64,000 nucleotides of DNA from Candidatus Levybacteria bacterium RIFCSPHIGHO2_02_FULL_40_18 (GTDB lineage Bacteria; Patescibacteriota; Microgenomatia; Levybacterales; GWA1-39-11), in NCBI GenBank assembly GCA_001782235.1, contig MFOC01000007.1:86799-150798 (forward strand), in the 5' to 3' direction. Positions within the stretch are counted from its first letter, which is position 1. Every line of letters begins with the position of its first letter. Below, piece by piece: positions 10,000-45,838 of this stretch. A program made the translations under genes and the position numbers. The notes below the pieces were generated by a model that saw only the letters and a program-made list of their open reading frames with translations, was not told the origin of the DNA and ran no database searches.

Positions 10000-10012
10000 A
10001 TTTAATAAGATA

Positions 10013-10121: not shown

Positions 10122-10123
10122 GG

Positions 10124-22991: not shown

Positions 22992-25049
22992 CTATGAAGA
23001 AACTATTTTTATTCCTTGAGAGCTTTCATCTAGGTTGGCTTGCGAAATTTTTTCTTGCTCTTGAACGGGAGACGTGTTAGCAGGGGGGGCTGTCATATCT
23101 TGCGCCTGTGTCTCTGGTTGCTCTCCGGGAGCGGATTGAGCGTCAGCGATGGAGGCATCCTCGCTGACAGGCGTGGGCGACGTAGCGGTGGCTGCCTCTT
23201 CTTCATGGGCAAGAATATCTTGAGGTTTTGAGGTGATCAGATCATATTCATATTGTGACGCTATGAACTGCGCGGTTACATGGTTTTGTCCTGCAAAAAG
23301 AAGTCCTTCCCCAACCTGGGCGGTTACTAAAAATTGTTTCTCTCCTTCTGATAAAAATAACGTTTTTGCCAAAACTTCAACTTCTGACGAGTTCTGTTTC
23401 AAGAGAATTTGGACTGAGGAGTTTGAAAGAATAGACTTTCCATAGTCGCTTGACAGGAAATCTTCAATATCCTGAGTAAGGGTTGTCACGCCAAGAAAAT
23501 ATTTTCTTGCGCGCTTTGCTATCCCTTGCAAAAAGGAGGCAGAATCAGGATGCTTCATAAGATACCATGCCTCATCAACCACCAAAATTCTTTTCTTAAG
23601 TTTTGTTCTGACGCGATTCCAAATAAAATCTAAAACCACGTGCATTGCAATTGGACGCAAAACATCCTCGAGCTGTTTAAGAGAAAAGACGGTTAATTGA
23701 TTTTTTATGTTGTAATTCGTCTGCTGATTAAATAGCCCAGAGAATCCACCTTTTACATATTTTTCAAGACGGAAAGAGAGATCCCTTGCCTCCGGCTCCT
23801 CCATATTAAGTAAGGTTTTATAAAGGTCCTCCAAGATCGGCGGCTCGTTTTTGTAGGTTGCAGGATCCGGCGTTATTCCCTTTTGCTTGTAACAAAGAAC
23901 AATCGCTCTATCTAAAATTGCCTCTTGTGTTGGAGACATCTCCCCAAGCATTGTTTTTAGGAGTCCGTGAAGAGATAATATTTTTATTCCAAGCTGGGCA
24001 TCTGTCATGTCTTCTTGGAGAAGGGCAAACGGGTTAATTTTTACCTCAGAACTTTTTGAGAAGTTTATATATTCGCCATCCAAAGCATGACATAAGGTTT
24101 TGTATTCATCTTCGGGATCTATTATTAAAATCTCGGCGTCAAACATCATTTGCCGCAAAATTTCAAGCTTTACCAAAAAAGATTTTCCGGCGCCCGATTT
24201 TCCAAAGACCACTTCATTTGCATTCTCAAAAGAAAAGCGGTCAACAATCGCAAGCGAATTATTTATGGTATTCACGCCATATAGAATTCCGTTTGGATGG
24301 GAAATTTCATAAGACGTAAATGGAAAAGTTGAAGCCAAAGACGTTGTGTCCATATTGCGGGTTATAAATAGCTTGTCGATTCCTGCTGGAAGACAGGTTT
24401 TGAATCCGTCTTCCATCTGAAGCGTTGCGGGTTTTACAACCAAAAGGTTTGAGGAAAGCAAAGACTGAAGTTCTTTGGTTTTTATATCTAAATTCTCAAC
24501 TGAATCTGCTGCCAGGGTTATATATAGACCAAATTGGAAAAACCGTTCAAGACCTCGCGCTAGCTCTTCTCGGAGCGCTATAGCATCTTCAAGCCCCGCC
24601 TGAATTTTAGGATCCGGCTCAAGCCCCTGTTCCGCATCTGACTGAAGTGTTGCCTCCATCTCGGAGATTTTCCTTCGCAGGTTTCCCAAAACATCCTTGC
24701 TTTCAACCGGATATACAAACATTGATATGTTCATTGTTTCTTTATAGTCAATAAGAATTGAGAGCCAGTTTGGAGAAACCTGACGAGGGTAATCTACAAC
24801 AAAAAACGTTCTGAAAAACTTATCGCCAACTCTTATATTTTTAAAATCTACCTCAACTGAGGAGGGGGATATAAGGTCAACAACAGAAACCGAGCCTGAC
24901 TTGAGAGCATTATATCCTTGCGAGGAGGCGCGTTTTTGAGCAGGCCCCGCACCGTCCCGGTGCGGGGCAGGGACTTTCTGGATCTGAGCGTTAGCGGCGG
25001 TTGGATCCGATATAGCCTGTGTCTGTTGTTTTTTATCTTCATCAAACAT
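22992..25049 (-). CDS. virB4: VirB4/TraC-family type IV secretion ATPase
   Basis: 685 aa; Walker A VVFGKSGAGKSF, Walker B KRILVVDEAWYL, ..FLGVTTLTQD..; N-terminal VirB4-type domain (..FFRTFFVVDYPRQVSPNWL..). Confidence 0.85.
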   Translation of the reverse strand: MFDEDKKQQTQAISDPTAANAQIQKVPAPHRDGAGPAQKRASSQGYNALKSGSVSVVDLISPSSVEVDFKNIRVGDKFFRTFFVVDYPRQVSPNWLSILIDYKETMNISMFVYPVESKDVLGNLRRKISEMEATLQSDAEQGLEPDPKIQAGLEDAIALREELARGLERFFQFGLYITLAADSVENLDIKTKELQSLLSSNLLVVKPATLQMEDGFKTCLPAGIDKLFITRNMDTTSLASTFPFTSYEISHPNGILYGVNTINNSLAIVDRFSFENANEVVFGKSGAGKSFLVKLEILRQMMFDAEILIIDPEDEYKTLCHALDGEYINFSKSSEVKINPFALLQEDMTDAQLGIKILSLHGLLKTMLGEMSPTQEAILDRAIVLCYKQKGITPDPATYKNEPPILEDLYKTLLNMEEPEARDLSFRLEKYVKGGFSGLFNQQTNYNIKNQLTVFSLKQLEDVLRPIAMHVVLDFIWNRVRTKLKKRILVVDEAWYLMKHPDSASFLQGIAKRARKYFLGVTTLTQDIEDFLSSDYGKSILSNSSVQILLKQNSSEVEVLAKTLFLSEGEKQFLVTAQVGEGLLFAGQNHVTAQFIASQYEYDLITSKPQDILAHEEEAATATSPTPVSEDASIADAQSAPGEQPETQAQDMTAPPANTSPVQEQEKISQANLDESSQGIKIVSS

Positions 25050-25170: not shown

Positions 25171-25812
25171 TTACAATATTACATTCTTAATATCATTCGA
25201 ATCAAAATCCAAAGTAATAAACTCCTGATTGAATAGTTCATAGTAAAGCTTTATAAGCTCATTAGTTGAAAGTGGTCGAGCAGAGAGTCCCATTCTCTCA
25301 ACTTGCGTAGTAACATTGTTTCTTTTTGAAATAAGCGCTGATTTTACCCTCTCATTTAATGCCAGGTTTTTTTTGTCCGTTGTTTTCGCTTGTGCAGCAG
25401 AGGCTACCCCAAGCTCCAGTTGAGAAAACGGGATTACAATATAAATCTTTTTGTCTAAAAGTCCCTCACCCTTTATCAGATCTTTTATAAAATCTCTATA
25501 TAATGTTAATTGTTCCTTGACCTTAGGGTTTTGGATTCCTGCTATTTTATCCTCGATTAGTTTTATGTAACTGACAAGATCTACGCGCCGTGAGACAATC
25601 AATATTTGAATAGATGAAGAGAGAGAATTAAGAAGAGACATGTAGCCATAGATTCTTGCGTTTTGTTCATCTTGTGAGAGAAGGAAAAAATTAACGGACG
25701 AAACTTCCATAATCATACAAGCATTGCCGCCTTTTAAGAAGACAATATCGTCCTGGATGTCAACAATCTCAGTAAAATCTTGCGTGCTTGAGTGAATCTT
25801 TGACTTAGCCAT
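25171..25812 (-). CDS. Stand-alone protein resembling the N-terminal domain of Gram-positive VirB4/TraC-type ATPases
   Basis: STQDFTEIVDIQDDIVFLKGGNACMIMEVSSVNFFLLSQDEQNARIYGYMSLLNSLSSSIQILIVSRRVDL..; start moved to ATG 25812 because the first 11 track codons read through repeat words. Confidence 0.45.
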   Translation of the reverse strand: MAKSKIHSSTQDFTEIVDIQDDIVFLKGGNACMIMEVSSVNFFLLSQDEQNARIYGYMSLLNSLSSSIQILIVSRRVDLVSYIKLIEDKIAGIQNPKVKEQLTLYRDFIKDLIKGEGLLDKKIYIVIPFSQLELGVASAAQAKTTDKKNLALNERVKSALISKRNNVTTQVERMGLSARPLSTNELIKLYYELFNQEFITLDFDSNDIKNVIL

Positions 25813-25880
25813 AATCGATATAGAAATTGGTTGTAGGATTTCCATTACTAATTTCCATTTTCCAATAACTATTTTCTAGT

Positions 25881-26954
25881 CTATGCTGTTGCTTGGACTC
25901 CGCCGAATAGTTCGCGTCTTAGTTTCTCACGTGCGTCGATTGACGTAGTTTCTAGTGGATTAAAAATCTCGCCGTTCAAAGTAATTTCCGTTGCTTCAAA
26001 TTCATGATTTTTCTGTGGGTCCTCAAAATAGATTTTATAGGTGCCGTTTTGAAGCTGAGTAGCAGAGGCAAATTGTCCAAGAGCATTTGTTTTAAAGGCC
26101 CTAACCGGAATGCCGTTTGAGTCAATTACCTCAACTAAAATATTAGGCAAGGTTTTACCTCGTGCATCACGGATAATTCCAAGCACTACATTGGGGACAT
26201 CGGGTAGAGTTGGAAAGCCTCCGGTAAGGCTTGGATTTGCACGCACAGGGGTTGGCTGTGGCAGAGTTGTTTCTTTTGGAATTTCATGCCGAGTTTCCTT
26301 CATTGAAAATTCAGCGTCCCCAGCCTCTTTTTTGGGGACAGGCGGGGGGCGTTGAGCTTCCTTTGCGATTTCATCAAGTCTTTTTTTGTTCAGCTCCGAA
26401 GCCGTGTTTTCTTGATTTACCACCATAGGACTTCCTAAAACCGGCGGAGTAGAGACCGCACTTGATCCGTTTGTAAAATAGCTATTGATGGTGTCCAATA
26501 TGCGAGTTTCTGATTGATCCGGACGGAAAGGAGAATTTCTGAGTCTGCTTAATAAAACTGCTCTTTTTTCATCTTGTGGATTCGCAACCTTTGCTATCCC
26601 GCCTTGGCGGGGGGCACCTTGCTTTTTGGGAAGCTCGCCAAACACTTGAAACGTTGCCAGATTTGCACCCCTTTTTCTATATAGATAGCGATTTTCAGAA
26701 GGAATTGCTTTTGCAAAGTTGACGAGCATTACATCCATTGGTCTTCCTTCAATTGGAACAAATGCAAGAGCAACTCCTACAAGCGCAAAAGCCGCCATAG
26801 TTGGAGCTTTAATTAAAATATTGATTGGAAGTACAAAAGCAACAGTTGTTAAAATTCCAAATCCGAGAAGATATAAAAATTGCTTTACAGTAATGCTTCC
26901 AATGAGTTTAAACTTGAAACCCGTAACATCTTGCGGAATAGGGTGATTTTCCAT
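25881..26954 (-). CDS. PrgI-family (VirB3-like) membrane protein fused to a C-terminal carboxypeptidase-regulatory-like beta-sandwich
   Basis: N-term HPIPQDVTGFKFKLIGSITVKQFLYLLGFGILTTVAFVLP..ALAFVPIEGRPMDVMLVNFAKAI (PrgI pattern, 2 TM); C-term VLGIIRDARGKTLPNILVEVIDSNGIPVRAFKTNALGQFA..GTYKIYF. Confidence 0.6.
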   Translation of the reverse strand: MENHPIPQDVTGFKFKLIGSITVKQFLYLLGFGILTTVAFVLPINILIKAPTMAAFALVGVALAFVPIEGRPMDVMLVNFAKAIPSENRYLYRKRGANLATFQVFGELPKKQGAPRQGGIAKVANPQDEKRAVLLSRLRNSPFRPDQSETRILDTINSYFTNGSSAVSTPPVLGSPMVVNQENTASELNKKRLDEIAKEAQRPPPVPKKEAGDAEFSMKETRHEIPKETTLPQPTPVRANPSLTGGFPTLPDVPNVVLGIIRDARGKTLPNILVEVIDSNGIPVRAFKTNALGQFASATQLQNGTYKIYFEDPQKNHEFEATEITLNGEIFNPLETTSIDAREKLRRELFGGVQATA

Positions 26955-27195: not shown

Positions 27196-28479
27196 CTATT
27201 TCTGAGAGGCCATGTCCATACCCATATCCGCCACAGCCATAAGAAGAAACAGAAGACCTAGCAGTCCTATCCCGCCAATTGTTTTTGCCTTTTTGATGGC
27301 GGCTTCTCTCTTTAATTTTTTTTCAGCTTTTTGTTCCGGAGAATCTTTAGGATCATCCTGCAATTCATGAAAAATAGCATTTACAGCTGTTTCAAGATTA
27401 CCGCTTTTTAATGCATTTTTTACTTCTCTTGCGGTTTTAGTGTCTACTTGTGCAGTGCGGACCTTTTCAAGATAAATTTGCATGCCCTGGTCCTGCCTTA
27501 GGTAGTCTGAAGCTTTTTCATAAAAAGATACATATTCTCTTTCCAATGCAAGCTCTCGTTCTAACTGTTTTCTCGTTTCTCCATCAAGATTTCCACTATT
27601 TAAGCTCTTCTGAATTTCTTGTACTCTACTTGAAGCTCTTGTAGAGAGCGTATCAAGATCCAAGTTCTGCATAATTTTTGCAGCGGTTTCTGGGTCAAGC
27701 AAATTTCTACCTGCGAGCGAATCTAAAAACTCTTGTTTTTGAGCTGGATCTTCAATAGTGCGTTCAGCAAACCCCCGCATGTCTTCTGTGGTTATAATTT
27801 CTGTTTCATCCGCAGCTTTTTTGCTGAGAGCATTTATATTATTTGAGTCTTTTCCTTCAAGCGCTTGTTCTCCTCCTTGGAGCACATCTATATGCAACTG
27901 GAGTAGCTCCCTTTGCCCGGGGGGCATGCGTGCCATTATTACAGAAGCAGCATCCGGGTTAGAAGTTAAAATTGATTGTTGGATTTGCTCTCGCGTTAAA
28001 GTTTCTGGGACTTGTACATTTTCATTTTCAGGATCCTGCAAGAAACAGGAAAATTTTCCATCTGCAGTTACCTCAAGGCTTTTTACAGTCATTACCTTAC
28101 CGTCTTTTGTATATTTCAAAGGGTCACTGGATTTAAATGTTAGTGCCTCACCTGTATGAGTGCCATCGCTCAAGGTTTCTATTTGCCACATTCCAAAGAG
28201 TAGATTTTTACCCTTATCAGTTTCGAGCAAATTGATTCTTTCCTGCTCTGTCAAGCCCTCGACTTCTTGAGCTGCTTGCCTCATTTCCCTGTAGACCGAG
28301 CGGCTTCCCACAGTCCCTATCTCTCTTATTTGAGTTTGCCTGGAGACTTCTCTTTCTGAAGTTCTTGATTCCTCTTGTTCAAGAGATGAGTCCTGGCGAG
28401 AAGGAGTATCTCGCTGCACTGGTGGCGGCACTACAGCTGTTGCTTCAGGGGTCGCACCTTCTATTGCGTCTGGTCCCAT
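27196..28479 (-). CDS. Tail-anchored coiled-coil protein, unknown family
   Basis: Start taken at M21 (MGPDAIEG..) to avoid overlap with the divergent gene; E/Q/K-rich helical body; C-terminal TM IGGIGLLGLLFLLMAVADMGM. Confidence 0.5.
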   Translation of the reverse strand: MGPDAIEGATPEATAVVPPPVQRDTPSRQDSSLEQEESRTSEREVSRQTQIREIGTVGSRSVYREMRQAAQEVEGLTEQERINLLETDKGKNLLFGMWQIETLSDGTHTGEALTFKSSDPLKYTKDGKVMTVKSLEVTADGKFSCFLQDPENENVQVPETLTREQIQQSILTSNPDAASVIMARMPPGQRELLQLHIDVLQGGEQALEGKDSNNINALSKKAADETEIITTEDMRGFAERTIEDPAQKQEFLDSLAGRNLLDPETAAKIMQNLDLDTLSTRASSRVQEIQKSLNSGNLDGETRKQLERELALEREYVSFYEKASDYLRQDQGMQIYLEKVRTAQVDTKTAREVKNALKSGNLETAVNAIFHELQDDPKDSPEQKAEKKLKREAAIKKAKTIGGIGLLGLLFLLMAVADMGMDMASQK

Positions 28480-28530
28480 AAACTTATCATACTTGAAAAA
28501 ACAAGCTGCTTCAAGTAATAATAGTGATAT

Positions 28531-31500
28531 ATGGTTCAATTCAATTCACATGAATTGGCAGTAGCAGGTCCTGCCACAAGACAACCGCGACAAGGGCGGA
28601 AAGAAGAGCAAGCACCCCCAGGATCGGAAACTGTTTTAAAAGTTCGGAAAAGCGCATTCTTAAGAGAAGAAACATCAGGTACTCGTGTAAGAAGCATTAG
28701 AGGACGAGAACGCGGAATCCAGTCAGAGTGGGTTTCTTTAGATGAACATATAAAAGAAGAGTATCGAATTTTTCTAAAAGACCATGCTGAAGGTTTATTA
28801 AGGCTTTACAACAACCACCAAGAAATCCTCCAAAGCGAACCTCACAGACACGATGAGGAATTATTCAACATGTTTACATCTGAGAGAAGAAACGCAGACG
28901 GTACCATTAAGAAAATAATAGATGAACAAAAAATTGAGGGCTTCTTAAAAAAACCGGAAGGATGGATGGTAACAACGCAATTACTTGAGCATCAAACCGC
29001 AATGCAATTGTTTGCGTTAGGGTTGCACGCAGCTGCTAATCCTCAGGGAGAAAGAAATGCTTTGGGTGGTAAGGTAACTATTCCACTTGGAATAGATCAG
29101 GGTATTTTAAACAGGCTTGGGAGGGAAGTGGTAGAAGGTTTAAGACTTAATGAGTTTGCTGCTACCTTTGGAGGAAGAAGAGGGGAGGCAAGAATTTTGG
29201 GCTTAATTAGGGCTCCCTGGGCAGATAATTTAAGGCGATGGCATGTAGCAGGAATAACGGGCGGTGCATCCGCTTTGGGAATAGCAGGCACCGCAATGCT
29301 TGGACCGGAGGCAATGATTGGAGCAGGTATTGCCCCATGGGCATTTCAATGGCTCCAAGCCTCAATTGGCACTGGTGTTCAGGTTGACATGAGGCAGTGT
29401 AGCGCAGCTTTTCAGGCAATAAGAACGAATCCCACAGAGGTTGAATATGTAAAAGAAGTTTTTGGAGTAGATATGCGAGATTTTGTCGATCTTGGCTATA
29501 ATCAAATCGGCCTAGCACCACATAGAGCGGTGGGAGGCAATCTTGAAACCTATACAGACGTAAACAATCTGAGAAATAATGCCGTAGGAAATATAATTAC
29601 GCGCATGGAATTCTACACCAAAATTGGTGTTCCGCTTGAGAAGCTTGATGCCTTACCCGAGCAATTTCTATATTTATATACTAACCAACAGGAGCAAACC
29701 GGAACCGAATGGCAGAGAAGAATTCAAGAAGTCTTCCTTCCGAATGCCGGAGGCATCAGAGACATAAATGGTAATAACATTGAAACTGCTCCCGGAGTTC
29801 CCAATCCGGCTTTTGACGCCAACAATTTGGATTTTGCCGGAAACATCTCAAGATACATGGATGCAAGAAGACAGATAATGGTAGGAATGGTACGGGATAT
29901 GATTCAAGAAGAAAGAAGTGCGGCGGCTTCTTTAGATCAATCAAAGCAAGCAATTACCCAAATGATAACAGAGAGAAGATCTGAAGGTTATAGACAAAGA
30001 AGAACAGAAAGACTGGGTCAAGAAAGAACAAGACTCGAAGCCTATAGAAATATTTTAGATGGGCAGACAGGTGCATTCACTATATATAACCAAACAATAA
30101 CGGAGCTTAATGAAGAGAGAACAAATCTTGCGACCGAACTTTCAAGGACTTTTGCAGGAGCATTTGGAGGAGATGTTGATGCTGCTTTAACCTCGGCCAG
30201 AAGTATTTTATCGACGCCTGGAACTACCATAACTATTAATGGAAATGTAATTGCTTCTACTCGTCAGAGATTTACAGATCTTGATGCCTGGAGGTCAACA
30301 GAGATAGCCGATATAAAAAATCACAGACCAGCACATTTAGACCCGACAGACGATGAGTATCCAGTATGGGTTCAATCAGAGAGAGAAAGAATACTTAGCG
30401 ATTATCAGAACCAGAAAGCTGATATTCAAGCAGATGTAAATATAATCAACCAGCAGATTGAAAATCTTGAGGGGTTTAGAACTAGAGTTACAGTAGCTGA
30501 AAGGCGGCTTGAGAACAACGAAGAGGGACAGCCATCAAGGATTCTCATTCAACAACTCGAGGGTTGGGAGAGGGATCGCGCTCAAATTACTGGTTGGGGC
30601 ACGCCTGCTAATGTTTTGGATAATGCGTTTTTAGCTAGCGGCGATATAGATGCGATTATGGCAAGAATTAACACTGCTAATGCTGCTACTCCCGCAAACG
30701 GTTGGCCGGAGGCAAGAAATAATGATCCGGCTTATAGAACTCGAGTTTTTCAAGCAGTTCTTGAGTCAAGAGCTCAAGTAGCAGAAGCAGCTGACACAAC
30801 AAGAGCAGCAAGACTTCCTGATTATGTCATTATAACTAACCCTGCAGTATGGAATATTAGTCAGAATGAGTTAAGACACATGACTCCTGCCGATTTAACA
30901 GCCGCACTAACAGCAAGGGCCCCGGCATTAGGGGGAATACCAATTCCAAATCCAGCTCAAATTGAAAACGCTATTCGTGAAGCACAAAATAGAATTCAAG
31001 TTAGATTAGGAGCTATCACAGAGCAAACAAGAATTACTGACGAAGCGATAGAAAACAGAAGGTTCCAAATAGAAGGCGTTAACTTTGATGATGAGATCAG
31101 ACAACTTGAAACAGCATTAACTTTGCTTAATCGACAGCCGGATATTATTGCAGGACGCCCGACTCGTGAGAATCGTGCTACATTTACCGACAGGACTGTT
31201 ATGGCAGGAGATACAACATATTCACAATCTGAAAGAGACGTAGGTTCTGTCAGGGGCTATTATGAATTTATGAATCTCCTCTTTAATTATAGAGAAAGAG
31301 GCGTAGTTGAGGGAGTGGACCGCGACGAATATTTTAGAAGAATTTCTCAAGTTTTACCACCAGCAAGATTAGGGCAATTACTAAATGAAGCTTTGGGATT
31401 GGGAGGTTCCGGAATAAATCTCAATACTGTCTTAGCAAGACTTGATGCAAGACTTGCCTCAGGACAAATAAACGACAGAGATATGGTAAGGGTTTTATTC

Positions 31501-31545
31501 AATGTAATAGAAAGAAATAGACTTGAGGCTCTTGCCCTAAGTTAA
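28531..31545 (+). CDS. Large (1004 aa) orphan protein with a Gly/Ala-rich hydrophobic hairpin and a long R/E/Q-rich helical region
   Basis: Uninterrupted 3-kb ORF; hydrophobic ITGGASALGIAGTAMLGPEAMIGAGIAPWAFQWLQASIGTG at aa ~240-285; no family recognised. Confidence 0.6.
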   Translation: MVQFNSHELAVAGPATRQPRQGRKEEQAPPGSETVLKVRKSAFLREETSGTRVRSIRGRERGIQSEWVSLDEHIKEEYRIFLKDHAEGLLRLYNNHQEILQSEPHRHDEELFNMFTSERRNADGTIKKIIDEQKIEGFLKKPEGWMVTTQLLEHQTAMQLFALGLHAAANPQGERNALGGKVTIPLGIDQGILNRLGREVVEGLRLNEFAATFGGRRGEARILGLIRAPWADNLRRWHVAGITGGASALGIAGTAMLGPEAMIGAGIAPWAFQWLQASIGTGVQVDMRQCSAAFQAIRTNPTEVEYVKEVFGVDMRDFVDLGYNQIGLAPHRAVGGNLETYTDVNNLRNNAVGNIITRMEFYTKIGVPLEKLDALPEQFLYLYTNQQEQTGTEWQRRIQEVFLPNAGGIRDINGNNIETAPGVPNPAFDANNLDFAGNISRYMDARRQIMVGMVRDMIQEERSAAASLDQSKQAITQMITERRSEGYRQRRTERLGQERTRLEAYRNILDGQTGAFTIYNQTITELNEERTNLATELSRTFAGAFGGDVDAALTSARSILSTPGTTITINGNVIASTRQRFTDLDAWRSTEIADIKNHRPAHLDPTDDEYPVWVQSERERILSDYQNQKADIQADVNIINQQIENLEGFRTRVTVAERRLENNEEGQPSRILIQQLEGWERDRAQITGWGTPANVLDNAFLASGDIDAIMARINTANAATPANGWPEARNNDPAYRTRVFQAVLESRAQVAEAADTTRAARLPDYVIITNPAVWNISQNELRHMTPADLTAALTARAPALGGIPIPNPAQIENAIREAQNRIQVRLGAITEQTRITDEAIENRRFQIEGVNFDDEIRQLETALTLLNRQPDIIAGRPTRENRATFTDRTVMAGDTTYSQSERDVGSVRGYYEFMNLLFNYRERGVVEGVDRDEYFRRISQVLPPARLGQLLNEALGLGGSGINLNTVLARLDARLASGQINDRDMVRVLFNVIERNRLEALALS

Positions 31546-31553
31546 AGTATTAT

Positions 31554-31901
31554 ATGAGTCTACAGACTAAAGATTTAATAAAAATATTACCCTTTGACGA
31601 GGCTTTTAAGAAAGAGCTTGGTGATTCCTTCGATAGCTTAGACACTGACAAAAGAAATAGTATTGAAAAGCTGCTTTGGGGAACATATTTTGCTCTTTAT
31701 GACTTTAAATTAAATGAGAACCTTTCAATTGCTCTTGCGGAAGCAAAAAAAAACAGAGAAAAGCTAGATGAGAATTTTTATTGGAGAGTGAAAGAATTGA
31801 CGGATCGGGAGATAGAACATGTAAGCGCTGAAGATATAAAAACAGCCGATTTAGAAGAAGCAAGAGATAAACTCGCAGAAATTGTAAGCCCTGATAAATG
31901 A
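31554..31901 (+). CDS. Hypothetical helical protein (115 aa), co-oriented with the 1004-aa gene
   Basis: 8-nt gap after the preceding stop; acidic, helical. Confidence 0.45.
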   Translation: MSLQTKDLIKILPFDEAFKKELGDSFDSLDTDKRNSIEKLLWGTYFALYDFKLNENLSIALAEAKKNREKLDENFYWRVKELTDREIEHVSAEDIKTADLEEARDKLAEIVSPDK

Positions 31902-32210
31902 CTATCTTGGGGCGAGCTGCCCTACGCCCGTGATTTGGGATATGGCGTTAAGGAAGAAAAATGAGAGAAAGATAAATATCAGACCAGCAAGCGCATAGAC
32001 TAAAGTTTTCCTAGCGCTTGATATCTTTTCAGGATCCCCTTCTGACATAACATATTTATATCCTGCATAAATTATCATAAAAACCGATACAATACCCGCA
32101 ATTACAATAAGGGCATTGATGATATTTTGAAGAACCACAGGGATACACGAAAGAGTTGCGACGCCCTCAGGGCTAACACAACTTCCCCAATCAGAAATAA
32201 TATCAAACAT
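31902..32210 (-). CDS. VirB2/TrbC-type T4SS pilin paralogue 1
   Basis: 102 aa, two TM; motif YAGYKYVMSEGDPEKISSARKTLVYALAGLIF. Confidence 0.65.
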   Translation of the reverse strand: MFDIISDWGSCVSPEGVATLSCIPVVLQNIINALIVIAGIVSVFMIIYAGYKYVMSEGDPEKISSARKTLVYALAGLIFIFLSFFFLNAISQITGVGQLAPR

Positions 32211-32260
32211 ATATATATTTTATAGATAACCTAATCTTAAAATCAATAAAGAAGGTTTTG

Positions 32261-32659
32261 TTATTTGAATTCAGGGAGGGTGAGGATCTTGAGATTTCTT
32301 AGGTCTCCAAGTCCAAGAGCCTGAAGCACAACATTTATAATGACAAAAGAAAGAGCTATTATAATAAGACCTATTACTGCGGCAATTATATGATTTCTTG
32401 CATCTGCAACTTTTTGTTTGTCTCCGCCTGATGTGATCCACTGAAATGCCCCAATGACTATAAAAAGAAGTGCCGCCAAAAAGGCTATAACTATTATAAA
32501 GGCAACCAAAAACCCTACCACTTGGCCAATGGTTGTTTCAGGAGGAATAACAGTTGCGCCCGCGGGAGTTTTGACTCCGGCATCTATCGCGGCAAAAGCA
32601 GGTGCGGCAAGTGAGGAATAAGAAATTAGAGCGAAGGCACCTGATAATATCTTTCTCAT
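32261..32659 (-). CDS. VirB2/TrbC-type T4SS pilin paralogue 2
   Basis: 132 aa; signal peptide ..SSLAAPAFA; GAFQWITSGGDKQKVADARNHIIAAVIGLII. Confidence 0.7.
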   Translation of the reverse strand: MRKILSGAFALISYSSLAAPAFAAIDAGVKTPAGATVIPPETTIGQVVGFLVAFIIVIAFLAALLFIVIGAFQWITSGGDKQKVADARNHIIAAVIGLIIIALSFVIINVVLQALGLGDLRNLKILTLPEFK

Positions 32660-32698
32660 AAATTAATTAGAGCATGTTTCAAACCCTTTGTCAATAGT

Positions 32699-33034
32699 CT
32701 ATGGATTAACAACTGTTTTAACACCAAACGCGCCTGCTACGAGATTTACAAAGACAAGCGCCAATGACATAACTATTAATCCAAATATCGCATAGATAAC
32801 TATTCTTCTTGCTTTATCCCATTTTTGCTTGTCCCCGGACGCTTGTAGCCAATAAAAACCCCCATAAACAATATAGAATAGAGAAAGAAAAATTCCAATA
32901 ATTAGCGCTAGTTGAATGAAAAAAGATGCAATATTGCCTATTGTAAATTGAGGTCCGGTAGGAATACCGGGAGGCGCCTCAATATCAACTTGGCCTCCGC
33001 CTGAACCCGGTACTTTTAATGATAAATATCTCAT
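32699..33034 (-). CDS. VirB2/TrbC-type T4SS pilin paralogue 3
   Basis: 111 aa; GGFYWLQASGDKQKWDKARRIVIYAIFGLIV. Confidence 0.65.
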   Translation of the reverse strand: MRYLSLKVPGSGGGQVDIEAPPGIPTGPQFTIGNIASFFIQLALIIGIFLSLFYIVYGGFYWLQASGDKQKWDKARRIVIYAIFGLIVMSLALVFVNLVAGAFGVKTVVNP

Positions 33035-33168
33035 ATTAGAAATTGGTTATTAATAATTAGAAAATAGTTCAGAAATTAGAAATTAGAAATTGGTTCTTGA
33101 TTTTTAACTATTTTCTATTCTCTATTTTCCATTACCATTTTCCATTCTCCTATAACTATTTTCTAATA
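33035..33168. repeat. Quasi-palindromic heptamer spacer (GAAATTA/GAAAATA family), orientation A
   Basis: Arms of about 62 nt, about 70% complementary; core 33084-33135 is the perfect reverse complement of 34625-34676. Confidence 0.8.
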
Positions 33169-33171
33169 TAT

Positions 33172-34530
33172 TTAGCGGGTGATTCCTGGTATTTTCAAAA
33201 TATCAACTCCTATTATCTCAAGTATAACAATTGAGAAAATGATGAACAACAATCCTACGACTGCAGAAGTTATCGTTTCCCTTGCTCCTGCGATTTTCTC
33301 TTTATCCCCTCCTGACGTTATTAATATATAGCCTGAGTAGATTATTATTATGATTGCCCCAAATCCCGCAATTGTTAATATAAATCTAAAAATTGTCTCA
33401 ATGAATCCTTTTGGAGTGACATTAATTGGTCCGATTGCCGAATTTATGGTTTTACAGTCACCAGGGCGAAGATTAATATCACCTTCCCCACTTCCACAAG
33501 GCAGTATTGCACCGGGAGCAACCTTATTTAACGCCGCAAGGTCTTTAAGAAAGGTACGATACTCCTCGCCTTTGGGATCTTGTCTATAATGCAGGGGATC
33601 ATCACATGTTCCACCTTCCTTATTATTAGCTGATGTGATTATGCATGTTGCTTCATAATATGTAAATCCACCTTTACAACCAGGTGGGTTTGGAACTGAA
33701 GGAAATACGCTGACGCTTACCCAAGCCCATGCGGTTGGGTTATCATCATCAACCTGTTCTCTTACAGTTATTGTGTATTTTCCAGCGGAAAGTTTTTGAA
33801 ACTCAATTCTTTTTCCACTCTCATTCTCGCTCGTAAAGGCAAGACATCCTCCCTGTCGGTAACCATTGTTTCCAATCATCAAAATTTGGTAGTTATTCCT
33901 TCTCCACCCTCCAGGCCTGAACGAATTATTAATGGCATTGCCTAGATTTACGGTGATTGTTGCGCCAGGTCTCAAGTCTGTACCAGGATAGATTGATAGA
34001 GAAGGATAAGTTCTATGAACATAAAAACCTCCTATTTTAATTGGTTTGTAATAGGCATCTTTTATTAGGGTTCCGATACTCAGCGCATAGACATTCCCAC
34101 CATGAAAATAGACAGTGCCACCACAGTCAGTTTTGACCTTGCTACTTCCTGCTCCGCATACCCCCTTAACAGTTACATTGCCTTTGCTATCTGATTTTAG
34201 CCCTAAGATAAAATTGTCCAATATATCTGGGCCGTTTATCCCAGGTACAAATCCTTCTTCTCTAAGACATGCGCTGTCTCCCGTACAAATTATATAACCA
34301 GACTTATCACTCTCAAGTCCATAAAAAGTAATATCAATTATTTTATCTGCTTCATCAAGACATTCAGGTCGCTCGCTTGTTGAAAATTCAACGTCTGTTC
34401 CCTCAAGAATTGTCTCAGTGGGAGAAGGACTTGTCTGACATGGATCAAGCTGGGCAAAAGCAGGAGTTTTGAAAAGTAAAAATATCGCGGCGAAGAGGAA
34501 GGACGCGGTTAATATAAGAAGCTTCTTCAT
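33172..34530 (-). CDS. Secreted Cys-rich protein with a C-terminal T4SS-pilin domain (candidate pilus adhesin)
   Basis: Start taken at MKKLLILTASFLFAAIFLLF (signal peptide). About 380-aa domain with >14 Cys. C-terminus IIIIIYSGYILITSGGDKEKIAGARETITSAVVGLLFIIF has the same motif as the three short pilins. Confidence 0.65.
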   Translation of the reverse strand: MKKLLILTASFLFAAIFLLFKTPAFAQLDPCQTSPSPTETILEGTDVEFSTSERPECLDEADKIIDITFYGLESDKSGYIICTGDSACLREEGFVPGINGPDILDNFILGLKSDSKGNVTVKGVCGAGSSKVKTDCGGTVYFHGGNVYALSIGTLIKDAYYKPIKIGGFYVHRTYPSLSIYPGTDLRPGATITVNLGNAINNSFRPGGWRRNNYQILMIGNNGYRQGGCLAFTSENESGKRIEFQKLSAGKYTITVREQVDDDNPTAWAWVSVSVFPSVPNPPGCKGGFTYYEATCIITSANNKEGGTCDDPLHYRQDPKGEEYRTFLKDLAALNKVAPGAILPCGSGEGDINLRPGDCKTINSAIGPINVTPKGFIETIFRFILTIAGFGAIIIIIYSGYILITSGGDKEKIAGARETITSAVVGLLFIIFSIVILEIIGVDILKIPGITR

Positions 34531-34572
34531 ATATTTATGATAGGCAGAAGGAGTAGGGGAAGTCAACATCCG

Positions 34573-34722
34573 CTAGAAATTAGTTATTAATAATTAGAAA
34601 ATAGTTGTTGGAAAATGGAAATTAGTAATGGAAAATAGAGAATAGAAAATAGTTAAAAATCAAGAACCAATTTCTAGTTTCTAATTTCCGAACCATTCTC
34701 TAATTTCCCATAACTACTTTCT
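34573..34722. repeat. Quasi-palindromic heptamer spacer, orientation B (inverted relative to 33035-33168)
   Basis: 34625-34676 is the exact reverse complement of 33084-33135; right arm 34666-34698 is the reverse complement of 36073-36105 (1 mismatch). Confidence 0.8.
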
Positions 34723-34723: not shown

Positions 34724-36040
34724 CTACTCTGTGAGTTTGTAGCCGCGGCCTTTTATGGTTTGGATAGAATTAGGATTATTGGGATCATCTTCTATTTTCT
34801 TTCGTAAGCGATAAATTATTTGATCAAGGGCTTGGTCTGTTACACCTTCTTGAGTTTTAGTGTCTTTCCAGACATTTGAGATTATTTCGTCTTTTTCACA
34901 TACCCGCCCTTGGTTTTGAAGCAAAAATCTAAGTAGTCTAAACTCCTGCGGAGAAAGAATTTCGGTTAAGTTTTGATCTCCCTTGAGGATCTCATTGCGC
35001 TCCTGATCATAAGACAATCTTGGGGAGGTGGGGGTTAAAGTTTTTAGGTATGTGTCGAACAATGGAATAACGAGTTTGCCATCACGGGTTAGTCCTGCCT
35101 TTTCTAAAAATTCATTTTTATTATTTGCTTTTATATCCTTCTTTTCTTCCGGTGTCAGGAAATTCCATATCTCTGAAAGCGCGCTCCTAACCTGTGGTTT
35201 TAACAGTAAGACTTCGGATAATCGGCTGTTGGCTGTTGGCTGTTGGCTATTGGCCAGGGTAGCTTCATAACAAATTCGTGCGAGTTTTCCGTGGCCGCCG
35301 GTCAGTTTTATAATTTCACTTTTAATTCTTTCATCAGCCGACTTTCCCGAAATTTCTTCAAGATGCTTGAATCGAAATTCTAGTCCCACCTTATCATAAA
35401 GCGAAAGATATACTATGTTACCGATTAAAAACTCAGAGAATTCGGCATAAATAGAAGATTCTAAAACCTCCTCGATTGGACGCGTTATGCCAAAAACAGC
35501 AGTAAATCTATACTTTGCGCGGTTTCGAAGAATCTTTAAGTTAAGAAAAAAGGAAGAGTCAATATTTTGTACATATTCCTCAAAACGGTCCAGCAGAAAA
35601 ACAATATTTAATTCGCATTCATTTGCAAGATAGTCTATAGCTTTTTTTAAGTTTTGAGAAAAGACCATCTCATCGGAGAATTTAAGAGCGTCTGAGAGAA
35701 ATTTATTAACAACCGACTCTTCTTCTTTTAATCTTCTTTCGCCAAAAGAGGAAGCAATAGAGATTAAGATAAATTTTAATATGTCGGAAAGGGACCTTTT
35801 GGCTACTTCTGAGAAGTCCATATAAACAAAATGATAAGAAGATTCCCTTTTACCTAAGTGGAGCTCCCGGACCGTTCTATTATAAGGAAGTAAACGAAGC
35901 GCGTTGCTTTTCCCTGTGCCCGGTAGCCCAATTACCTGACAGGATTTGCCCGATGATACGAATTCGATAATTTTGGCGATCTCAGCCTTTCTTGTTTCTT
36001 TTGGGTATAGGCTCTCAAAATGAGAAGGCTCGATAATCAT
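34724..36040 (-). CDS. AAA/P-loop ATPase fused to an OmpR/PhoB-type winged-helix DNA-binding domain
   Basis: Walker A VIGLPGTGKSNAL, Walker B-like IVFLLDRFEEY; C-term LSPQEFRLLRFLLQNQGRVCEKDEIISNVW..ALDQIIYRLRKKIEDDP..IQTIKGRGYKL. Confidence 0.7.
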   Translation of the reverse strand: MIIEPSHFESLYPKETRKAEIAKIIEFVSSGKSCQVIGLPGTGKSNALRLLPYNRTVRELHLGKRESSYHFVYMDFSEVAKRSLSDILKFILISIASSFGERRLKEEESVVNKFLSDALKFSDEMVFSQNLKKAIDYLANECELNIVFLLDRFEEYVQNIDSSFFLNLKILRNRAKYRFTAVFGITRPIEEVLESSIYAEFSEFLIGNIVYLSLYDKVGLEFRFKHLEEISGKSADERIKSEIIKLTGGHGKLARICYEATLANSQQPTANSRLSEVLLLKPQVRSALSEIWNFLTPEEKKDIKANNKNEFLEKAGLTRDGKLVIPLFDTYLKTLTPTSPRLSYDQERNEILKGDQNLTEILSPQEFRLLRFLLQNQGRVCEKDEIISNVWKDTKTQEGVTDQALDQIIYRLRKKIEDDPNNPNSIQTIKGRGYKLTE

Positions 36041-36103
36041 AGAAAATAGAAAATAGTTATTAGAAAATAGACAATGGTTCGGAAATTAGAAAATAGAAAT
36101 TGG
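36041..36103. repeat. Purine-rich arm flanking the four-helix-bundle gene
   Basis: AGAAAATAGAAAATAGTTATTAGAAAATAGACAATGGTTCGGAAATTAGAAAATAGAAATTGG; complementary in composition and words to 36490-36552. Confidence 0.7.
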
Positions 36104-36505
36104 TTAACGATCATGGTAATTCTTCCAAGATTTCTTAAGATTCGTTAGTTGCTTACAGGAGATTATATATAAATTTATGACTTCGTTGCAAAGTTTAGGA
36201 TCGACGTATTTACTATAAACATCTATGCATACTGATAAATGATTTATCATTTCGTAACATTCACCTATCGTATCATCTATATATTTACTCCATGCTTTTT
36301 TCTGATATCTTTTGGCAAACCCCTCAGCAAGTATGGCTGGTCCTGCTTTGCAACTACGTCTCATTTGATCAACAAGATCAAACTTCTCTTCCTTCGGTAG
36401 ATTAGTAATTATTTCCTTCAATACTGTGACCATTGCCTTATATAAATTTTGGTACACCTCAAGATCTTGAAAAGTTCTGATTGGCTTTTTCTTTCTATTT
36501 TCCAT
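36104..36505 (-). CDS. Four-helix-bundle protein (23S rRNA intervening-sequence protein family)
   Basis: ..IRTFQDLEVYQNLYKAMVTVLKEIITNLPKEEKFDLVDQMRRSCKAGPAILAEGFAKRYQKKAWSKYIDDTIGECYEM.. fits the family pattern; start moved to ATG 36505 because upstream codons are repeat words. Confidence 0.75.
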   Translation of the reverse strand: MENRKKKPIRTFQDLEVYQNLYKAMVTVLKEIITNLPKEEKFDLVDQMRRSCKAGPAILAEGFAKRYQKKAWSKYIDDTIGECYEMINHLSVCIDVYSKYVDPKLCNEVINLYIISCKQLTNLKKSWKNYHDR

Positions 36506-43168: not shown

Positions 43169-45673
43169 ATGAAATTACAAGGACTTTCGCAAAAAGTATT
43201 TTTGGATCGCTATTCTTTAAAAGATAAGAAGGGGAAGGCTCTCGAAAAAACCCCTGACCGCATGTGGAGGAGAGTGGCCGCGGCTGTTGCCGGTGTTGAG
43301 ACAACTTCCCAAAATAAGAAGCGCTGGGAAAAGGAATTTTATTCTGCGATGCAGGATTTTAAATATGTTCCCGGAGGAAGAATTTTGGCAGGCGCTGGGA
43401 CCGGTTTTGAAGTTACCTACTATAATTGCTTTGTAATTCCATCCCCCAAAGACTCACGTGAAGGGATTCTTGAAACCCTCAAGCAAATGGTAGAGATTAT
43501 GGCTCGCGGTGGGGGAGTCGGAATAAATCTTTCTTCCTTGCGACCGCGCGGGTTTCGCGTTGAAAAAGTAAACGGCTTCTCTTCAGGTCCCTGCAATTGG
43601 GCAGAACTTTTCTCCGTTGCAACAAAAGACATTATTCAACAGGGAGGTAGTCGCCGAGGGGCATTAATGCTTATGCTCTGGGATTGGCATCCTGATATTG
43701 AAGAATTTATTACTGTTAAACAAGATCTTTCCCGTATAAATGGCGCAAACCTTTCTGTCTGTGTTTCAGATTCTTTCATGGAGCAGGTTGAGCGCGATGG
43801 AGATTGGGACCTTGTCTTTCCGGACAGAAGAGATCCCGAGTATGATACAAAATGGGACGGAGATATATACACATGGCGTGCAATGGGCAAAAAGGTTGTA
43901 AAACATAAGACTATCAAAGCGCGCTACATGTGGGATCTAATTGCCGAGGCCGCCTGGAGATCTGCAGAGCCGGGAGTTGTCTTCATGGAACGATACAATA
44001 AACTGCACAATAATTGGTATTGGAACCGAATTAACTGCGTAAATCCATGCGGAGAGGAGGGCTTGCCGCCGTGGGGAGTTTGCAATCTTGGATCAATTAA
44101 TCTTTCAGCTCTTGTTCACGGCGATAATATTGACAAGAAGGGAAAGTTTGATTTTTCTCTACTTAAGAAAGTCACTCGGGCCGCTGTCCGATTTCAAGAC
44201 AATGTTATTGAAATGGATCCTTATATTTTTGATGGGATCAAAAAGACCCAATATGAAGGAGAAAGAAGAATAGGTCTTGGGACAATGGGTCTTGGAGATG
44301 CTTTGATTAAGCTTCATTTAAGATATGGGTCACCTGAATCCCTTCAGTTTATCGATCGCGTTTATAGAATTATAAGAGACGAGGCGTATAGGACCTCAGT
44401 TGAAATTGGCGCTGAGAAAGGATCTTTTGGAAAGTTTGACAAAAAACTTTATCCTCAGGGCAAGTTCATACAACTGTTGCCTGCTGATATTCAGAATGGA
44501 ATTAAGAAAAAAGGCATTAGAAATTCCATACTTCTTATGCAAGCGCCAACCGGGTCAACATCTCTTCTTGTTAATACAACCTCTGGAATTGAGCCGGTTT
44601 TTGAATTCGAATTTGTGAGGCGCGATAGAATAGGCGAGCATGTTGTCCGCCACTACTTATATGAACAATGGTATAAAAAACACGGCAAGGATATTGAGGC
44701 AGGCAAAATTGAGCGGCCCGATTTCTTTGTGTCGGCGAATGATCTGACGCCAGAAGATCATGTCAGGGCTCAGGCAATAATTCAAAAATATGTTGATGCA
44801 TCTATTTCAAAAACAGTTAATGCGCCTAATGCCCACACAGTTGAAGAAGTAAAAAAGCTTTACAACATGGCATACAAACTTGGTTGCAAAGGCGTTACAT
44901 ATATGAGAGAAGGATCCCGCGCAGGGGTCTTGGAACGCATAGATGATAAGAAGAAGGAAGAAGCTCCAAAGGTTGAAGTAAAAGCCCCACCGGTTACAAA
45001 GAGGCCGCCTGTTATGTATGGCTTGACTTACAAAACCCAAACGCCACTTGGAGACGCATTCATTACTATCAATAAAGATGAAGGAGGAAATCCCTTTGAA
45101 GCCTTTATAACCATTGGCAAATCAGGTTCTGATGTTGCTGCCATGACTGATGCTTTGGGCCGAATGATTTCCCTGACTCTTCGCCTTCAGAGTCCTATAC
45201 CGGCACGAGAACGCGTCAGACAGATTGTCGCACAGCTTTCGGGAATCGGCGGCATGAGAACAATCGGATTTGGAGAAAACAGGGTTCGGTCTGTGCCTGA
45301 TGCTGTAGCAAAAGTTTTAGCAGAGGAATTTGGATTTTCAGTCAACGGGATAGTTCGTGATCTAAAGACTTCGGAAAATACCGTAACAAACGGCCAGGTA
45401 GTTTCGGTATCGAATGGCGCAAACGGAAACGGAATTGTGGCAAAAACAAATGGCATCGTCACAAGTGCCAATGGTATAGCAAGTCCTGCGACTGCGCTAA
45501 ATGAATCGCAAAGCGAGGCGGCAGAGCAGACAGTTGTTATGGAACAATTAAGTATTGGGAGTGAGACCTCGACGCATAGCGCATTTGATTTTTGTCCCTC
45601 ATGCGGAGCAGCAACGCTCGCGCATGAAGAGGGATGCAAAAAATGCTATAGCTGCGGCTATAGTGAATGTTAA
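43169..45673 (+). CDS. nrdJ: Class II (adenosylcobalamin-dependent) ribonucleotide reductase
   Basis: 834 aa; ..GGGVGINLSSLRPRG.., ..NPCGEEGLPPWGVCNLGSINL.., ..APTGSTSLL..; C-terminal Cys4 finger CPSCG..CKKCYSCG. Confidence 0.9.
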   Translation: MKLQGLSQKVFLDRYSLKDKKGKALEKTPDRMWRRVAAAVAGVETTSQNKKRWEKEFYSAMQDFKYVPGGRILAGAGTGFEVTYYNCFVIPSPKDSREGILETLKQMVEIMARGGGVGINLSSLRPRGFRVEKVNGFSSGPCNWAELFSVATKDIIQQGGSRRGALMLMLWDWHPDIEEFITVKQDLSRINGANLSVCVSDSFMEQVERDGDWDLVFPDRRDPEYDTKWDGDIYTWRAMGKKVVKHKTIKARYMWDLIAEAAWRSAEPGVVFMERYNKLHNNWYWNRINCVNPCGEEGLPPWGVCNLGSINLSALVHGDNIDKKGKFDFSLLKKVTRAAVRFQDNVIEMDPYIFDGIKKTQYEGERRIGLGTMGLGDALIKLHLRYGSPESLQFIDRVYRIIRDEAYRTSVEIGAEKGSFGKFDKKLYPQGKFIQLLPADIQNGIKKKGIRNSILLMQAPTGSTSLLVNTTSGIEPVFEFEFVRRDRIGEHVVRHYLYEQWYKKHGKDIEAGKIERPDFFVSANDLTPEDHVRAQAIIQKYVDASISKTVNAPNAHTVEEVKKLYNMAYKLGCKGVTYMREGSRAGVLERIDDKKKEEAPKVEVKAPPVTKRPPVMYGLTYKTQTPLGDAFITINKDEGGNPFEAFITIGKSGSDVAAMTDALGRMISLTLRLQSPIPARERVRQIVAQLSGIGGMRTIGFGENRVRSVPDAVAKVLAEEFGFSVNGIVRDLKTSENTVTNGQVVSVSNGANGNGIVAKTNGIVTSANGIASPATALNESQSEAAEQTVVMEQLSIGSETSTHSAFDFCPSCGAATLAHEEGCKKCYSCGYSEC

Positions 45674-45699: not shown

Positions 45700-45838
45700 T
45701 AAGAGTATATATTTGGTAATCGCCGTGAAAGTCGGCGGAACTGCCGGTACTGTAATATCCAGAAAACAATATATACTTTCATCCCCGAGCAGGGTTAAGC
45801 GAAGAAGAATTCCTCTCGGGTTATCGAGAGGTTTTTTT
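45700..45838 (+). promoter_or_regulatory. Candidate cis-regulatory RNA leader (cobalamin-riboswitch-like core + terminator/antiterminator) ahead of the adenosyltransferase gene
   Basis: Closing helix AGTATATATT(45703-12)/AATATATACT(45768-77). Inside, CGCCG-UGAAAGU-CGGCG and ..CUGCCGGUACUGUAA resemble the GGUG..AA.UCC hairpin and CCCGCCACUGUAA core of B12 elements. CCCGAG (45784-89) can pair with CUCGGG in the terminator. Confidence 0.3.
45812..45838 (+). terminator. Intrinsic terminator
   Basis: CCTCTCG-GGTTAT-CGAGAGG followed by TTTTTTT. Confidence 0.75.

Follow-up and report, generated by a model that had tools for sequence, protein, structure and literature searches.

A substantial part of bacterial diversity consists of Patescibacteria, which live attached to host cells, and in the one species tested, the saccharibacterium Southlakia epibionticum, its type IV secretion system (T4SS) is essential together with the six-pilin array, a series of predicted pilins within the T4SS gene cluster (Wang et al. 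2023, PMC10633639). Among 3,035 Patescibacteria genomes surveyed with the profiles PF18895 and PF04956, 383 assemblies contained a total of 441 arrays, each of 2–11 pilin genes; Microgenomatia, to which the present genome belongs, and Saccharimonadia were especially rich in them, identity within an array averaged ∼25%, and the authors compared the arrays with VirB2 genes amplified in tandem in Bartonella and Anaplasma (Quinonero-Coronel et al. 2025, PMC12102498). Patescibacteria T4SS loci have yielded neither VirB5 nor an adhesin of the PrgB type (PMC10633639, PMC12102498, PMC12857230), most of these loci lack VirB1 (PMC12102498), and a 2025 review treats a pilus of these monoderm T4SSs as an open question, calling it "potential" (PMC12857230). 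Here we describe a locus of this kind in Candidatus Levybacteria bacterium RIFCSPHIGHO2_02_FULL_40_18 (contig MFOC01000007.1, positions 86,799 to 150,798 of the forward strand, a stretch of 64,000 nt referred to below as the window), in which four tandem PF18895 genes lie near virB4, PrgI/VirB3 and TrsD homologues, as is characteristic of Patescibacteria pilin arrays. The first-pass annotation of this DNA had called a multi-pilin array unusual for a T4SS, a view that the published arrays (PMC12102498) and their essential counterpart in Southlakia (PMC10633639) overturn. The array itself is of an already published kind, and sequence comparison makes three additions: the fusion of a pilin module to an ectodomain, strict positional orthology of the genes, and variability concentrated in the ectodomain. 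The literature searched held no mention of pilin-ectodomain fusions, and neither strict four-gene positional orthology nor variability concentrated in one ectodomain was found there.

Taken as a whole, the locus probably encodes a four-subunit pilin module of a chromosomal T4SS that includes a host-recognition fusion subunit; whether that subunit acts as an adhesin is, in our judgment, about evenly balanced. The genes are numbered pos1 to pos4 in operon order and lie on the minus strand, so that pos4 has the lowest coordinates:

33172..34530, minus strand: pos1, fusion pilin of 452 aa counted from M14, within an open reading frame (ORF) that extends to 34569 (33172-34569, 465 aa), with the stop codon at 33172-33174
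34453-34530, minus strand: pos1 signal peptide (cleavage AFA/Q), from hydropathy and inspection
33415-34452, minus strand: pos1 Cys-rich beta-sandwich ectodomain, predicted from AlphaFold2 (AF2), the Cys count and FN3-like matches
33175-33414, minus strand: pos1 T4SS_pilin two-helix module (PF18895) with the conserved tail IIGVDIL.IPG
32699..33034, minus strand: pos2, pilin-like, 111 aa, PF18895 at 33.3 bits, transmembrane (TM) helices 38-56 and 78-96 by hydropathy
32261..32659, minus strand: pos3, pilin-like, 132 aa, PF18895 at 36.7 bits, TM helices by hydropathy
31902..32210, minus strand: pos4, pilin-like, 102 aa, PF18895 at 41.2 bits, helical hairpin in the AF2 model

The four consecutive genes lie where the first-pass annotation had placed them, and its boundary at 34530 is the start of pos1 (M14) as judged from homologues, which begin "MKK". 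A TTGACT-18-TATCAT site at 34566-34537, inside the longer ORF, is weakly suggestive of translation starting at 34530; a promoter scan gave nothing above shuffle expectation. The shared motif strings read at first pass are all present: in each of the four proteins an S-G-(G)-D-K/P-x-K...A-R loop lies between two helices that are strongly hydrophobic by hydropathy.

The assignment of this motif to a T4SS pilin family was borne out. In a Pfam scan pos2, pos3 and pos4 passed the PF18895 (T4SS_pilin) gathering cut-off of 26.6 bits, and the pos1 module (residues 387-451) came just under it (24.7 bits, E 2.5e-5). Orthologues of pos1 in other genomes, up to 76% identical, exceed the same cut-off at 28–44.6 bits, and a protein identical to pos1 (P0001) carries PF18895 in precomputed database annotation. 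When a custom hidden Markov model of the family was run on the window, its matches were exactly the four ORFs (E 5e-39 to 3e-21), and the other modules are 23–33% identical to that of pos1. At the sequence level, the resemblance among the four modules is far beyond chance, and they almost certainly belong to a T4SS pilin-like module. That they are also homologues of canonical VirB2 is plausible, though not proven. The VirB2/TrbC-like pattern proposed at first pass holds with respect to PF18895, whereas membership of PF04956 (TrbC/VirB2, cut-off 27.9 bits) is not established: the closest match, pos4, reached 21.7 bits (E 2.3e-4) and pos1 13.6 bits, and pos2 and pos3 had no match. Saccharibacteria homologues show dual PF18895/PF04956 matches, and structure-based annotation gave TrbC/VirB2 as their closest fold, both of which support VirB2 homology in their case (PMC10633639 supplement).

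Each small pilin has features of its own. The pos2 protein has a Pro/Gly-rich N-tail, no signal peptide, two TM helices and the loop SGDKQKWDKARR; pos3 has a cleavable signal peptide (AFA/A) and the most VirB2-like architecture among the four; and pos4, again without a signal peptide, carries a conserved Cys pair in its N-tail (W..C....GVATL.C). The AF2 model of pos4 (pLDDT 83.8) is a clean hairpin with helices 22-55 and 60-94. Topology and signal peptides were assigned by hydropathy and inspection. The signal peptides and the disulfide-rich ectodomain place the N-termini of pos1 and pos3 outside, and the motif loop would therefore be cytoplasmic and the C-tail outside; for pos4, an N-out orientation is likewise suggested by the conserved Cys pair of its N-tail. 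As Costa and colleagues are said to have described in 2016, the VirB2/TraA loop is cytoplasmic in the membrane-inserted form and lines the lumen once the subunits have polymerized. A cytoplasmic motif had been named at first pass as a result that would speak against a pilin; that criterion does not apply, because a cytoplasmic basic loop is the normal VirB2/TraA topology.

The architecture foreseen for the largest protein, a signal peptide followed by a beta-rich, Cys-rich domain and a pilin hairpin, agrees with hydropathy and with the AF2 model of pos1. Its exported domain is indeed Cys-rich (12 Cys, 8 of them shared by ∼90–100% of the family) but measures ∼345 aa after removal of the signal peptide rather than the ∼380 aa first proposed. 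The AF2 model (pLDDT 85.3, pTM 0.74, from a 68-sequence alignment) runs from a signal helix through a low-confidence linker to beta structure at 49-310, a helix at 322-337, a small hairpin, and the helices 373-405 and 410-444. Foldseek returned tandem FN3-like matches for this model, and the ectodomain is accordingly predicted to comprise two tandem FN3/Ig-like beta-sandwiches and a small neck. No Pfam family covers it, and its conserved residues are Cys, Gly and Pro, with no catalytic-type residues apparent beyond these. Nor did Pfam give a VirB5/TraC match for the ectodomain, and its model is all-beta. VirB5 is a helical protein. Because there is neither sequence nor fold homology, any equivalence of pos1 to VirB5 would be functional only.

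The pos1 protein has ∼230 database homologues, of which the full-length ones measure 400–600 aa at 27–47% identity; many further matches share the pilin module only (50–69% identity), behind unrelated N-terminal regions of 200–650 aa. The ectodomain family is restricted in distribution, with only 72 cluster representatives in a set of 1.84 billion proteins; almost all of them measure 380–600 aa, a length that would suffice for a C-terminal pilin module, as in the pilin-fused homologues.

Related loci were collected by scanning one genome per species for a peptide pattern in the pos1 pilin module, which yielded 80 loci (L001-L080), mostly from Levybacteria, with others from Curtiss-, Davies- and Pacebacteria. 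The same four-gene order and sizes recur in at least 49 of them: a large fusion is followed by proteins of ∼105–115, ∼131–150 and ∼98–110 aa. Between genomes, the best match of each pilin module lies almost always at the same position (49/49 for pos1, 47/49 for pos2, 49/49 for pos3 and 47/49 for pos4), and 490, 376, 478 and 470 of the 490 top-10 matches, respectively, are same-position. Hallmarks follow position as well, with signal peptides in pos1 and pos3 only, the Pro/Gly tail in pos2, the Cys pair in pos4 and the IIGVDIL.IPG tail in pos1. Because orthology strictly follows gene position, redundant tandem copies are argued against; judged by their sequences, the four paralogues are ancient, specialized and non-interchangeable.

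Five loci (L002, L004, L008, L012 and L019) have a ∼1.5-kb opposite-strand gene inserted between pos2 and pos3, which in L002 encodes a 492-aa polytopic membrane protein. Many of the 80 loci are titled "uncultured Gammaproteobacteria bacterium" (third-party-annotation metagenome-assembled genomes) and others Nitrospirota, Actinomycetota or Pseudomonadales, and two protein matches are labeled Pacearchaeota and Nanoarchaeota; such titles are probably placeholder or wrong taxonomic labels.

Rates of change differ sharply within the locus. Against the closest relative (L075), identity is 88% for VirB4, 87% for TrsD, 83% for pos3, 78% for pos4 and 72% for pos2, and within pos1 it is 74% for the pilin module and 37% for the ectodomain. 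Among pairs with VirB4 identity of ≥85%, the ectodomain median is 35% as against 60–72% for the pilin modules, and among pairs at 65–75% the ectodomain could be aligned in only 24 of 152. Eighteen ectodomain clusters, none alignable with another and all Cys-rich (4–36 Cys), were distinguished across the 49 loci; one cluster has a PKD match and one a weak lectin-like match. Within the family, conservation rises from 19% in the distal part through 32% in the neck to 78% in TM2, and the small pilins have a median identity between genomes of 38–47%. By sequence comparison no other part of the locus evolves nearly as fast as the ectodomain, which diverges or, in many relatives, gives way to unrelated Cys-rich domains while the pilin anchor is conserved. 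The pos1 pilin module appears to be the most conserved of the four, with a conservation that is inflated by pattern-based retrieval.

The genes are part of a T4SS locus, as had been supposed, with VirB4, TrsD and PrgI/VirB3 homologues on the same strand:

34724..36040, minus strand: P-loop NTPase-like protein with an OmpR/PhoB-type winged-helix regulator domain, 438 aa (Trans_reg_C 80.5 bits), directly upstream of pos1
25881..26954, minus strand: PrgI/VirB3-like protein with a C-terminal beta-sandwich, 357 aa (PF12666 PrgI 30.5 bits)
25171..25845, minus strand: TrsD/TraD-like protein resembling the N-terminal region of VirB4, 224 aa (NCBIfam TrsD E 6e-8, sub-threshold)
22992..25049, minus strand: VirB4-family T4SS ATPase, 685 aa (TraG P-loop 117.5 bits, CagE_TrbE_VirB 21.3 bits)
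39722..41335, minus strand: polytopic membrane protein, 537 aa, ∼8 TM helices by hydropathy, no Pfam match, upstream of the regulator

VirB4 and pos4 share a strand and are 6.9 kb apart. Across 41–54 related loci the order is the 537-aa membrane protein, further upstream, then the regulator, pos1 to pos4, PrgI, TrsD and VirB4. In 54 loci a same-strand homologue of the membrane protein is found 5.9–8.9 kb upstream, and in 49 loci one of the regulator is found ∼1.3–2.8 kb upstream of pos1, mostly on the same strand. Downstream, same-strand homologues of PrgI, TrsD and VirB4 are conserved in 33, 44 and 41 loci, and PrgI follows the cassette, in many relatives directly after pos4. The window is chromosomal, carrying a tmRNA, tRNAs, RuvB and ribonucleotide reductase, and PrgI and TrsD point to a monoderm-type T4SS related to the mating-pair formation (MPF) class MPF-FATA. 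No relaxase or coupling protein was found among the ORFs scanned at 15-46 kb, a scan that included no MOB profiles and did not take in some ORFs of the window.

In the reading that we favor, all four proteins would insert N-out/C-out with the basic S-G-G-D-K-x-K...A-R loop in the cytoplasm, as in VirB2/TraA, and the T4SS would extract them from the membrane into a heteromeric surface filament or short conduit. There pos1 would present its variable ectodomain outward to the host surface as a recognition or attachment element, standing in functionally for the absent VirB5/PrgB-type adhesins and helping to set the host specificity of an episymbiont, and rapid ectodomain turnover would track host surface diversity. 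Since a VirB2-type helical lattice would be crowded if each subunit bore an N-terminal domain of ∼38 kDa, pos1 could be only a minor or tip subunit. The more specific proposal, that Levybacteria and related Microgenomatia build a heteromeric filament of four VirB2-like paralogues, one of them a modular adhesin-pilin with an exchanged host-recognition ectodomain, is tentative, and we think it somewhat more apt to be wrong than right.

Several observations weigh against a pilus with an adhesin subunit. The crowding just described is one, and no pilus of a Patescibacteria T4SS has been observed (PMC12857230). Homology to VirB2/TrbC appears only marginal: besides the sub-threshold PF04956 scores, hhalign against eight annotated plasmid VirB2/TrbC proteins gave E 0.02–0.045 at a probability of 1–2%, with a narrow, Alphaproteobacteria-only reference profile and an alignment that is in-register over TM1-loop-TM2, including for Agrobacterium-type VirB2. 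The family profile run against all PDB sequences found no pilin, only chance matches, Foldseek on the pos4 model gave no significant match, and helical hairpins are structurally non-specific. For the ectodomain, the predicted FN3/Ig-like fold would indicate a surface protein without marking it as an adhesin, and no ligand-binding site was identified in it. Of the tip or shaft adhesin of the first-pass annotation, the exported beta-rich domain holds up; its fold is a generic sandwich of no recognized lectin or adhesin family, and the adhesin role is an inference. As to sampling, pattern-based retrieval inflates pos1-module conservation and limits the sample to pos1-bearing genomes, while pos2 to pos4, VirB4 and the ectodomain are unaffected by this bias. 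Public contigs with the locus, finally, collapse to two places that are identical bar one indel, so strain-level variants are lacking: the 12.3 kb around the cassette is the same in the ENA/NCBI contigs (GCA_001782635.1, MFPG01000011.1) except for one indel in the latter.

The most serious alternative is that the two-TM proteins are ancestral channel components of a monoderm, conjugation-type T4SS, retained in the cytoplasmic membrane around VirB6, VirB3 and VirB4, and never form a pilus, with pos1 an anchored, wall-spanning surface protein; we consider it unlikely, though it deserves weight. All four proteins match NF045849, a family of Mycoplasma integrative and conjugative elements (ICEs), at E 2.7e-9 to 7e-4, but every score lies under the curated cut-off of 40 bits (36.6 for pos4 and 32.7, 19.2 and 23.0 for the others). 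An annotated Mbov_0395 pilin-like gene lies ∼4 kb upstream of a CD1110-type VirB4 on the Pontibacillus sp. ALD_SL1 plasmid NZ_CP062975.1 (351801-358115, L083), and because of it pilus-less Gram-positive systems can be said to carry such proteins; it was the sole plasmid tblastn match to an annotated feature, at E 0.03 over 42% of the query. The MPF-FATA-like character of the locus (PrgI, TrsD; PMC12102498) and the weak hhalign and Foldseek link to true VirB2 suit a channel too, while the TrbC/VirB2 fold nearest to the Saccharibacteria homologues (PMC10633639 supplement) does not, and four conserved paralogues with a hypervariable outward domain fit an exposed structure better.

Tandem amplification would make the four proteins redundant, antigenically variable major pilins, following the Bartonella Trw and Anaplasma analogy (PMC12102498). 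The divergence within the array from the pos1 module is close to the published ∼25% average, and some relatives hold 6–10 pilin copies, yet in 49 genomes orthology tracks the position of the gene, each position has its own protein size and N-terminal features, and the small pilins are moderately conserved while variability sits in the pos1 ectodomain. Positional orthology, position-specific features and the confinement of variability to that ectodomain argue for specialized subunits rather than variants, and we regard redundancy as quite improbable. That the ectodomain is an enzyme or secreted effector, such as a cell-wall hydrolase replacing VirB1 or a toxin, with the pilin hairpin as its anchor, is more improbable still: the general lack of VirB1 in Patescibacteria loci (PMC12102498) would leave room for one and transglutaminase 2 is among the Foldseek matches, but these span only its beta-sandwich domains (target-normalized TM-score 0.17–0.19), Pfam, NCBIfam and PDB sequences gave no enzyme match for the ectodomain, the fold search turned up none of the housekeeping enzymes that the first-pass annotation had set as a counter-indication, beyond Cys, Gly and Pro no catalytic-type conservation is apparent, and replacement by unrelated domains across relatives is atypical of a required enzyme.

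If the tentative proposal of a heteromeric filament with a modular adhesin-pilin is correct, pos1 would correspond in function to VirB5 or to the receptor-binding protein of a phage; the host range of uncultivated episymbionts of the candidate phyla radiation (CPR) could then be predicted from the type of ectodomain, and the locus would be the first instance both of an adhesin covalently fused to VirB2 and of a T4SS pilus built from several pilins in a monoderm. The question of why these loci have many pilins becomes testable, because one subunit bears the only hypervariable outward-facing domain of the locus. Two hypotheses can be put to the test: that the subunits are specialized and not redundant, and that the pos1 ectodomain is a candidate host-specificity determinant readable from metagenomes. 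For uncultivated lineages, this domain can also be used as a target of antibodies or in binding assays.

Two mechanisms for ectodomain variation were tried and rejected. Diversification by a diversity-generating retroelement lacks both a template/variable repeat and a reverse transcriptase: no repeat of any part of pos1 in 27-42 kb exceeded a 30-nt chance match, and there was no reverse transcriptase among the scanned ORFs. An invertible pos1 gene was suggested by bracketing 130-nt inverted repeats (88% complementary), which proved to be two copies of a dispersed palindromic element; 24 public contigs collapse to two places, and both, compared in DNA, share the orientation of the window. A PF05635 "23S rRNA intervening-sequence protein" (36104-36532, minus strand), a four-helix bundle related to Avd, adjoins the regulator and had prompted the retroelement idea; 14 related loci have homologues within or close to the cassette, at positions that differ. 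The palindromic elements are AT-rich, intergenic, ∼130 nt long and marked by periodic GAAAATAG/TAGAAAT motifs, and the window holds eight copies:

10005-10139: palindromic element
25839-25884: palindromic element
33035-33171: palindromic element
34574-34722: palindromic element
36044-36113: palindromic element
36495-36556: palindromic element
41344-41479: palindromic element
42567-42688: palindromic element

Six of the eight lie in the T4SS region and one copy adjoins ruvB; the element also occurs in L075 at 8631-8762. Four copies were tested for folding, and each forms a long, imperfect hairpin with a z of −4 to −5 relative to shuffles. The elements could be terminator-like, REP-like (repetitive extragenic palindromic) or operator arrays for the adjacent winged-helix regulator. 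Rfam gave no match for them, nor did it recognize an RNA family within or beside the cassette.

Other genes around the cassette show further peculiarities. The PrgI/VirB3-like protein, which corresponds to 11257-12309 in L082, has a C-terminal beta-sandwich that is CarboxypepD_reg/SdrD-B-like, and in GCA_001782635.1 a single-base indel, probably an assembly error or frameshift variant, cuts this protein into 217 and 140 aa. A ∼6-kb segment (27196-31901) separates the pilin cassette from PrgI-TrsD-VirB4 and is missing in most relatives. It encodes opposite-strand proteins of 115 and 1004 aa and another of 447 aa, which has a C-terminal TM helix; Pfam assigns no family to any of the three. Homologues of the 1004-aa protein occur in just 2 of the 80 loci, and the segment may be an insertion or a T4SS substrate. 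On the other side, divergent from the regulator, a 1073-aa orphan (36481-39702, plus strand) with a C-terminal TM helix and no Pfam match is kept upstream of the cassette in 11 related loci; compared with the 1004-aa orphan, it showed no relationship. Directly downstream of VirB4 lies a 738-aa protein (20765-22981, minus strand) with 12 Cys, one TM helix and no Pfam match. VirB6/VirB8-type components are scarce in Microgenomatia (PMC12102498), and the 738-aa and 537-aa proteins are candidates for such "missing" components, the 537-aa protein as a VirB6 analogue being only a guess. An AdoCbl-II (B12) riboswitch (45704-45777, plus strand) lies just downstream of the ribonucleotide reductase (43169-45673, TSCPD domain) and upstream of an ORF at 45857-46408.

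In organization, the cassette recalls the minor-pilin tip complexes of type IV pili and type II secretion systems (GspH-I-J-K; PilVWX with PilY1), in which about four divergent paralogues, the largest at the tip with an extra domain, prime assembly or mediate adhesion. This is an organizational analogy only, since the pilin fold and the assembly machine are unrelated. With VirB2/TrbC of the MPF-T class, the proteins share small size, two hydrophobic helices with a short basic loop, genes adjoining VirB3/VirB4 and a signal peptide (here in pos1 and pos3), but the sequence link is marginal, the cell is monoderm without an outer-membrane core complex, and there are four paralogues instead of one. 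Target contact in MPF-T systems falls to VirB5, a separate surface-exposed subunit (PMC12857230). Here there is no VirB5 homologue, and the putative contact domain is covalently fused to a pilin module. To our knowledge, no characterized T4SS has a contact domain fused in this way.

The archaeal Ced/Ted conjugation-like pili, with the CedA1-type pilin of Aeropyrum pernix (PDB 8dfu), also rank among the closest known systems. The Mbov_0395/MMCAP2_0565-0566 families of Mycoplasma ICEs and Bacillota (NF045849, NF045848) likewise place a two-TM module near VirB4 in a monoderm T4SS, and NF045848 combines it with a larger extra region; there, however, the module is N-proximal (profile 55-122 of 322), whereas here it is C-terminal after an exported domain, and scores are sub-cut-off. 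Two-TM pilin-like proteins do occur in Gram-positive conjugation loci, contrary to reviews that describe VirB2 as lacking. Like this locus, the Bartonella Trw system has several pilin genes; it is also a T4SS repurposed for adhesion that lacks a coupling protein and whose variability is tied to the specificity for hosts, traits that this locus may share. Its multiple variable VirB2 and VirB5 copies serve host-specific erythrocyte binding (PMC12857230); those copies are recent tandem duplicates of one subunit, in contrast to the ancient, position-specific paralogues here, where variability lies in a single fused ectodomain. Nearest of all are the Southlakia genes SEML1_0014-0019, another CPR array of tandem low-identity PF18895 genes with VirB4, PrgI/VirB3 and TrsD in a chromosomal MPF-FATA-like system, although its six pilins are all small (∼125–190 aa) and unfused, while the first gene here carries a ∼345-aa ectodomain. 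Published arrays have been treated as variable amplifications; here the four genes form a fixed cassette in which orthology follows position, with a dedicated regulator upstream.

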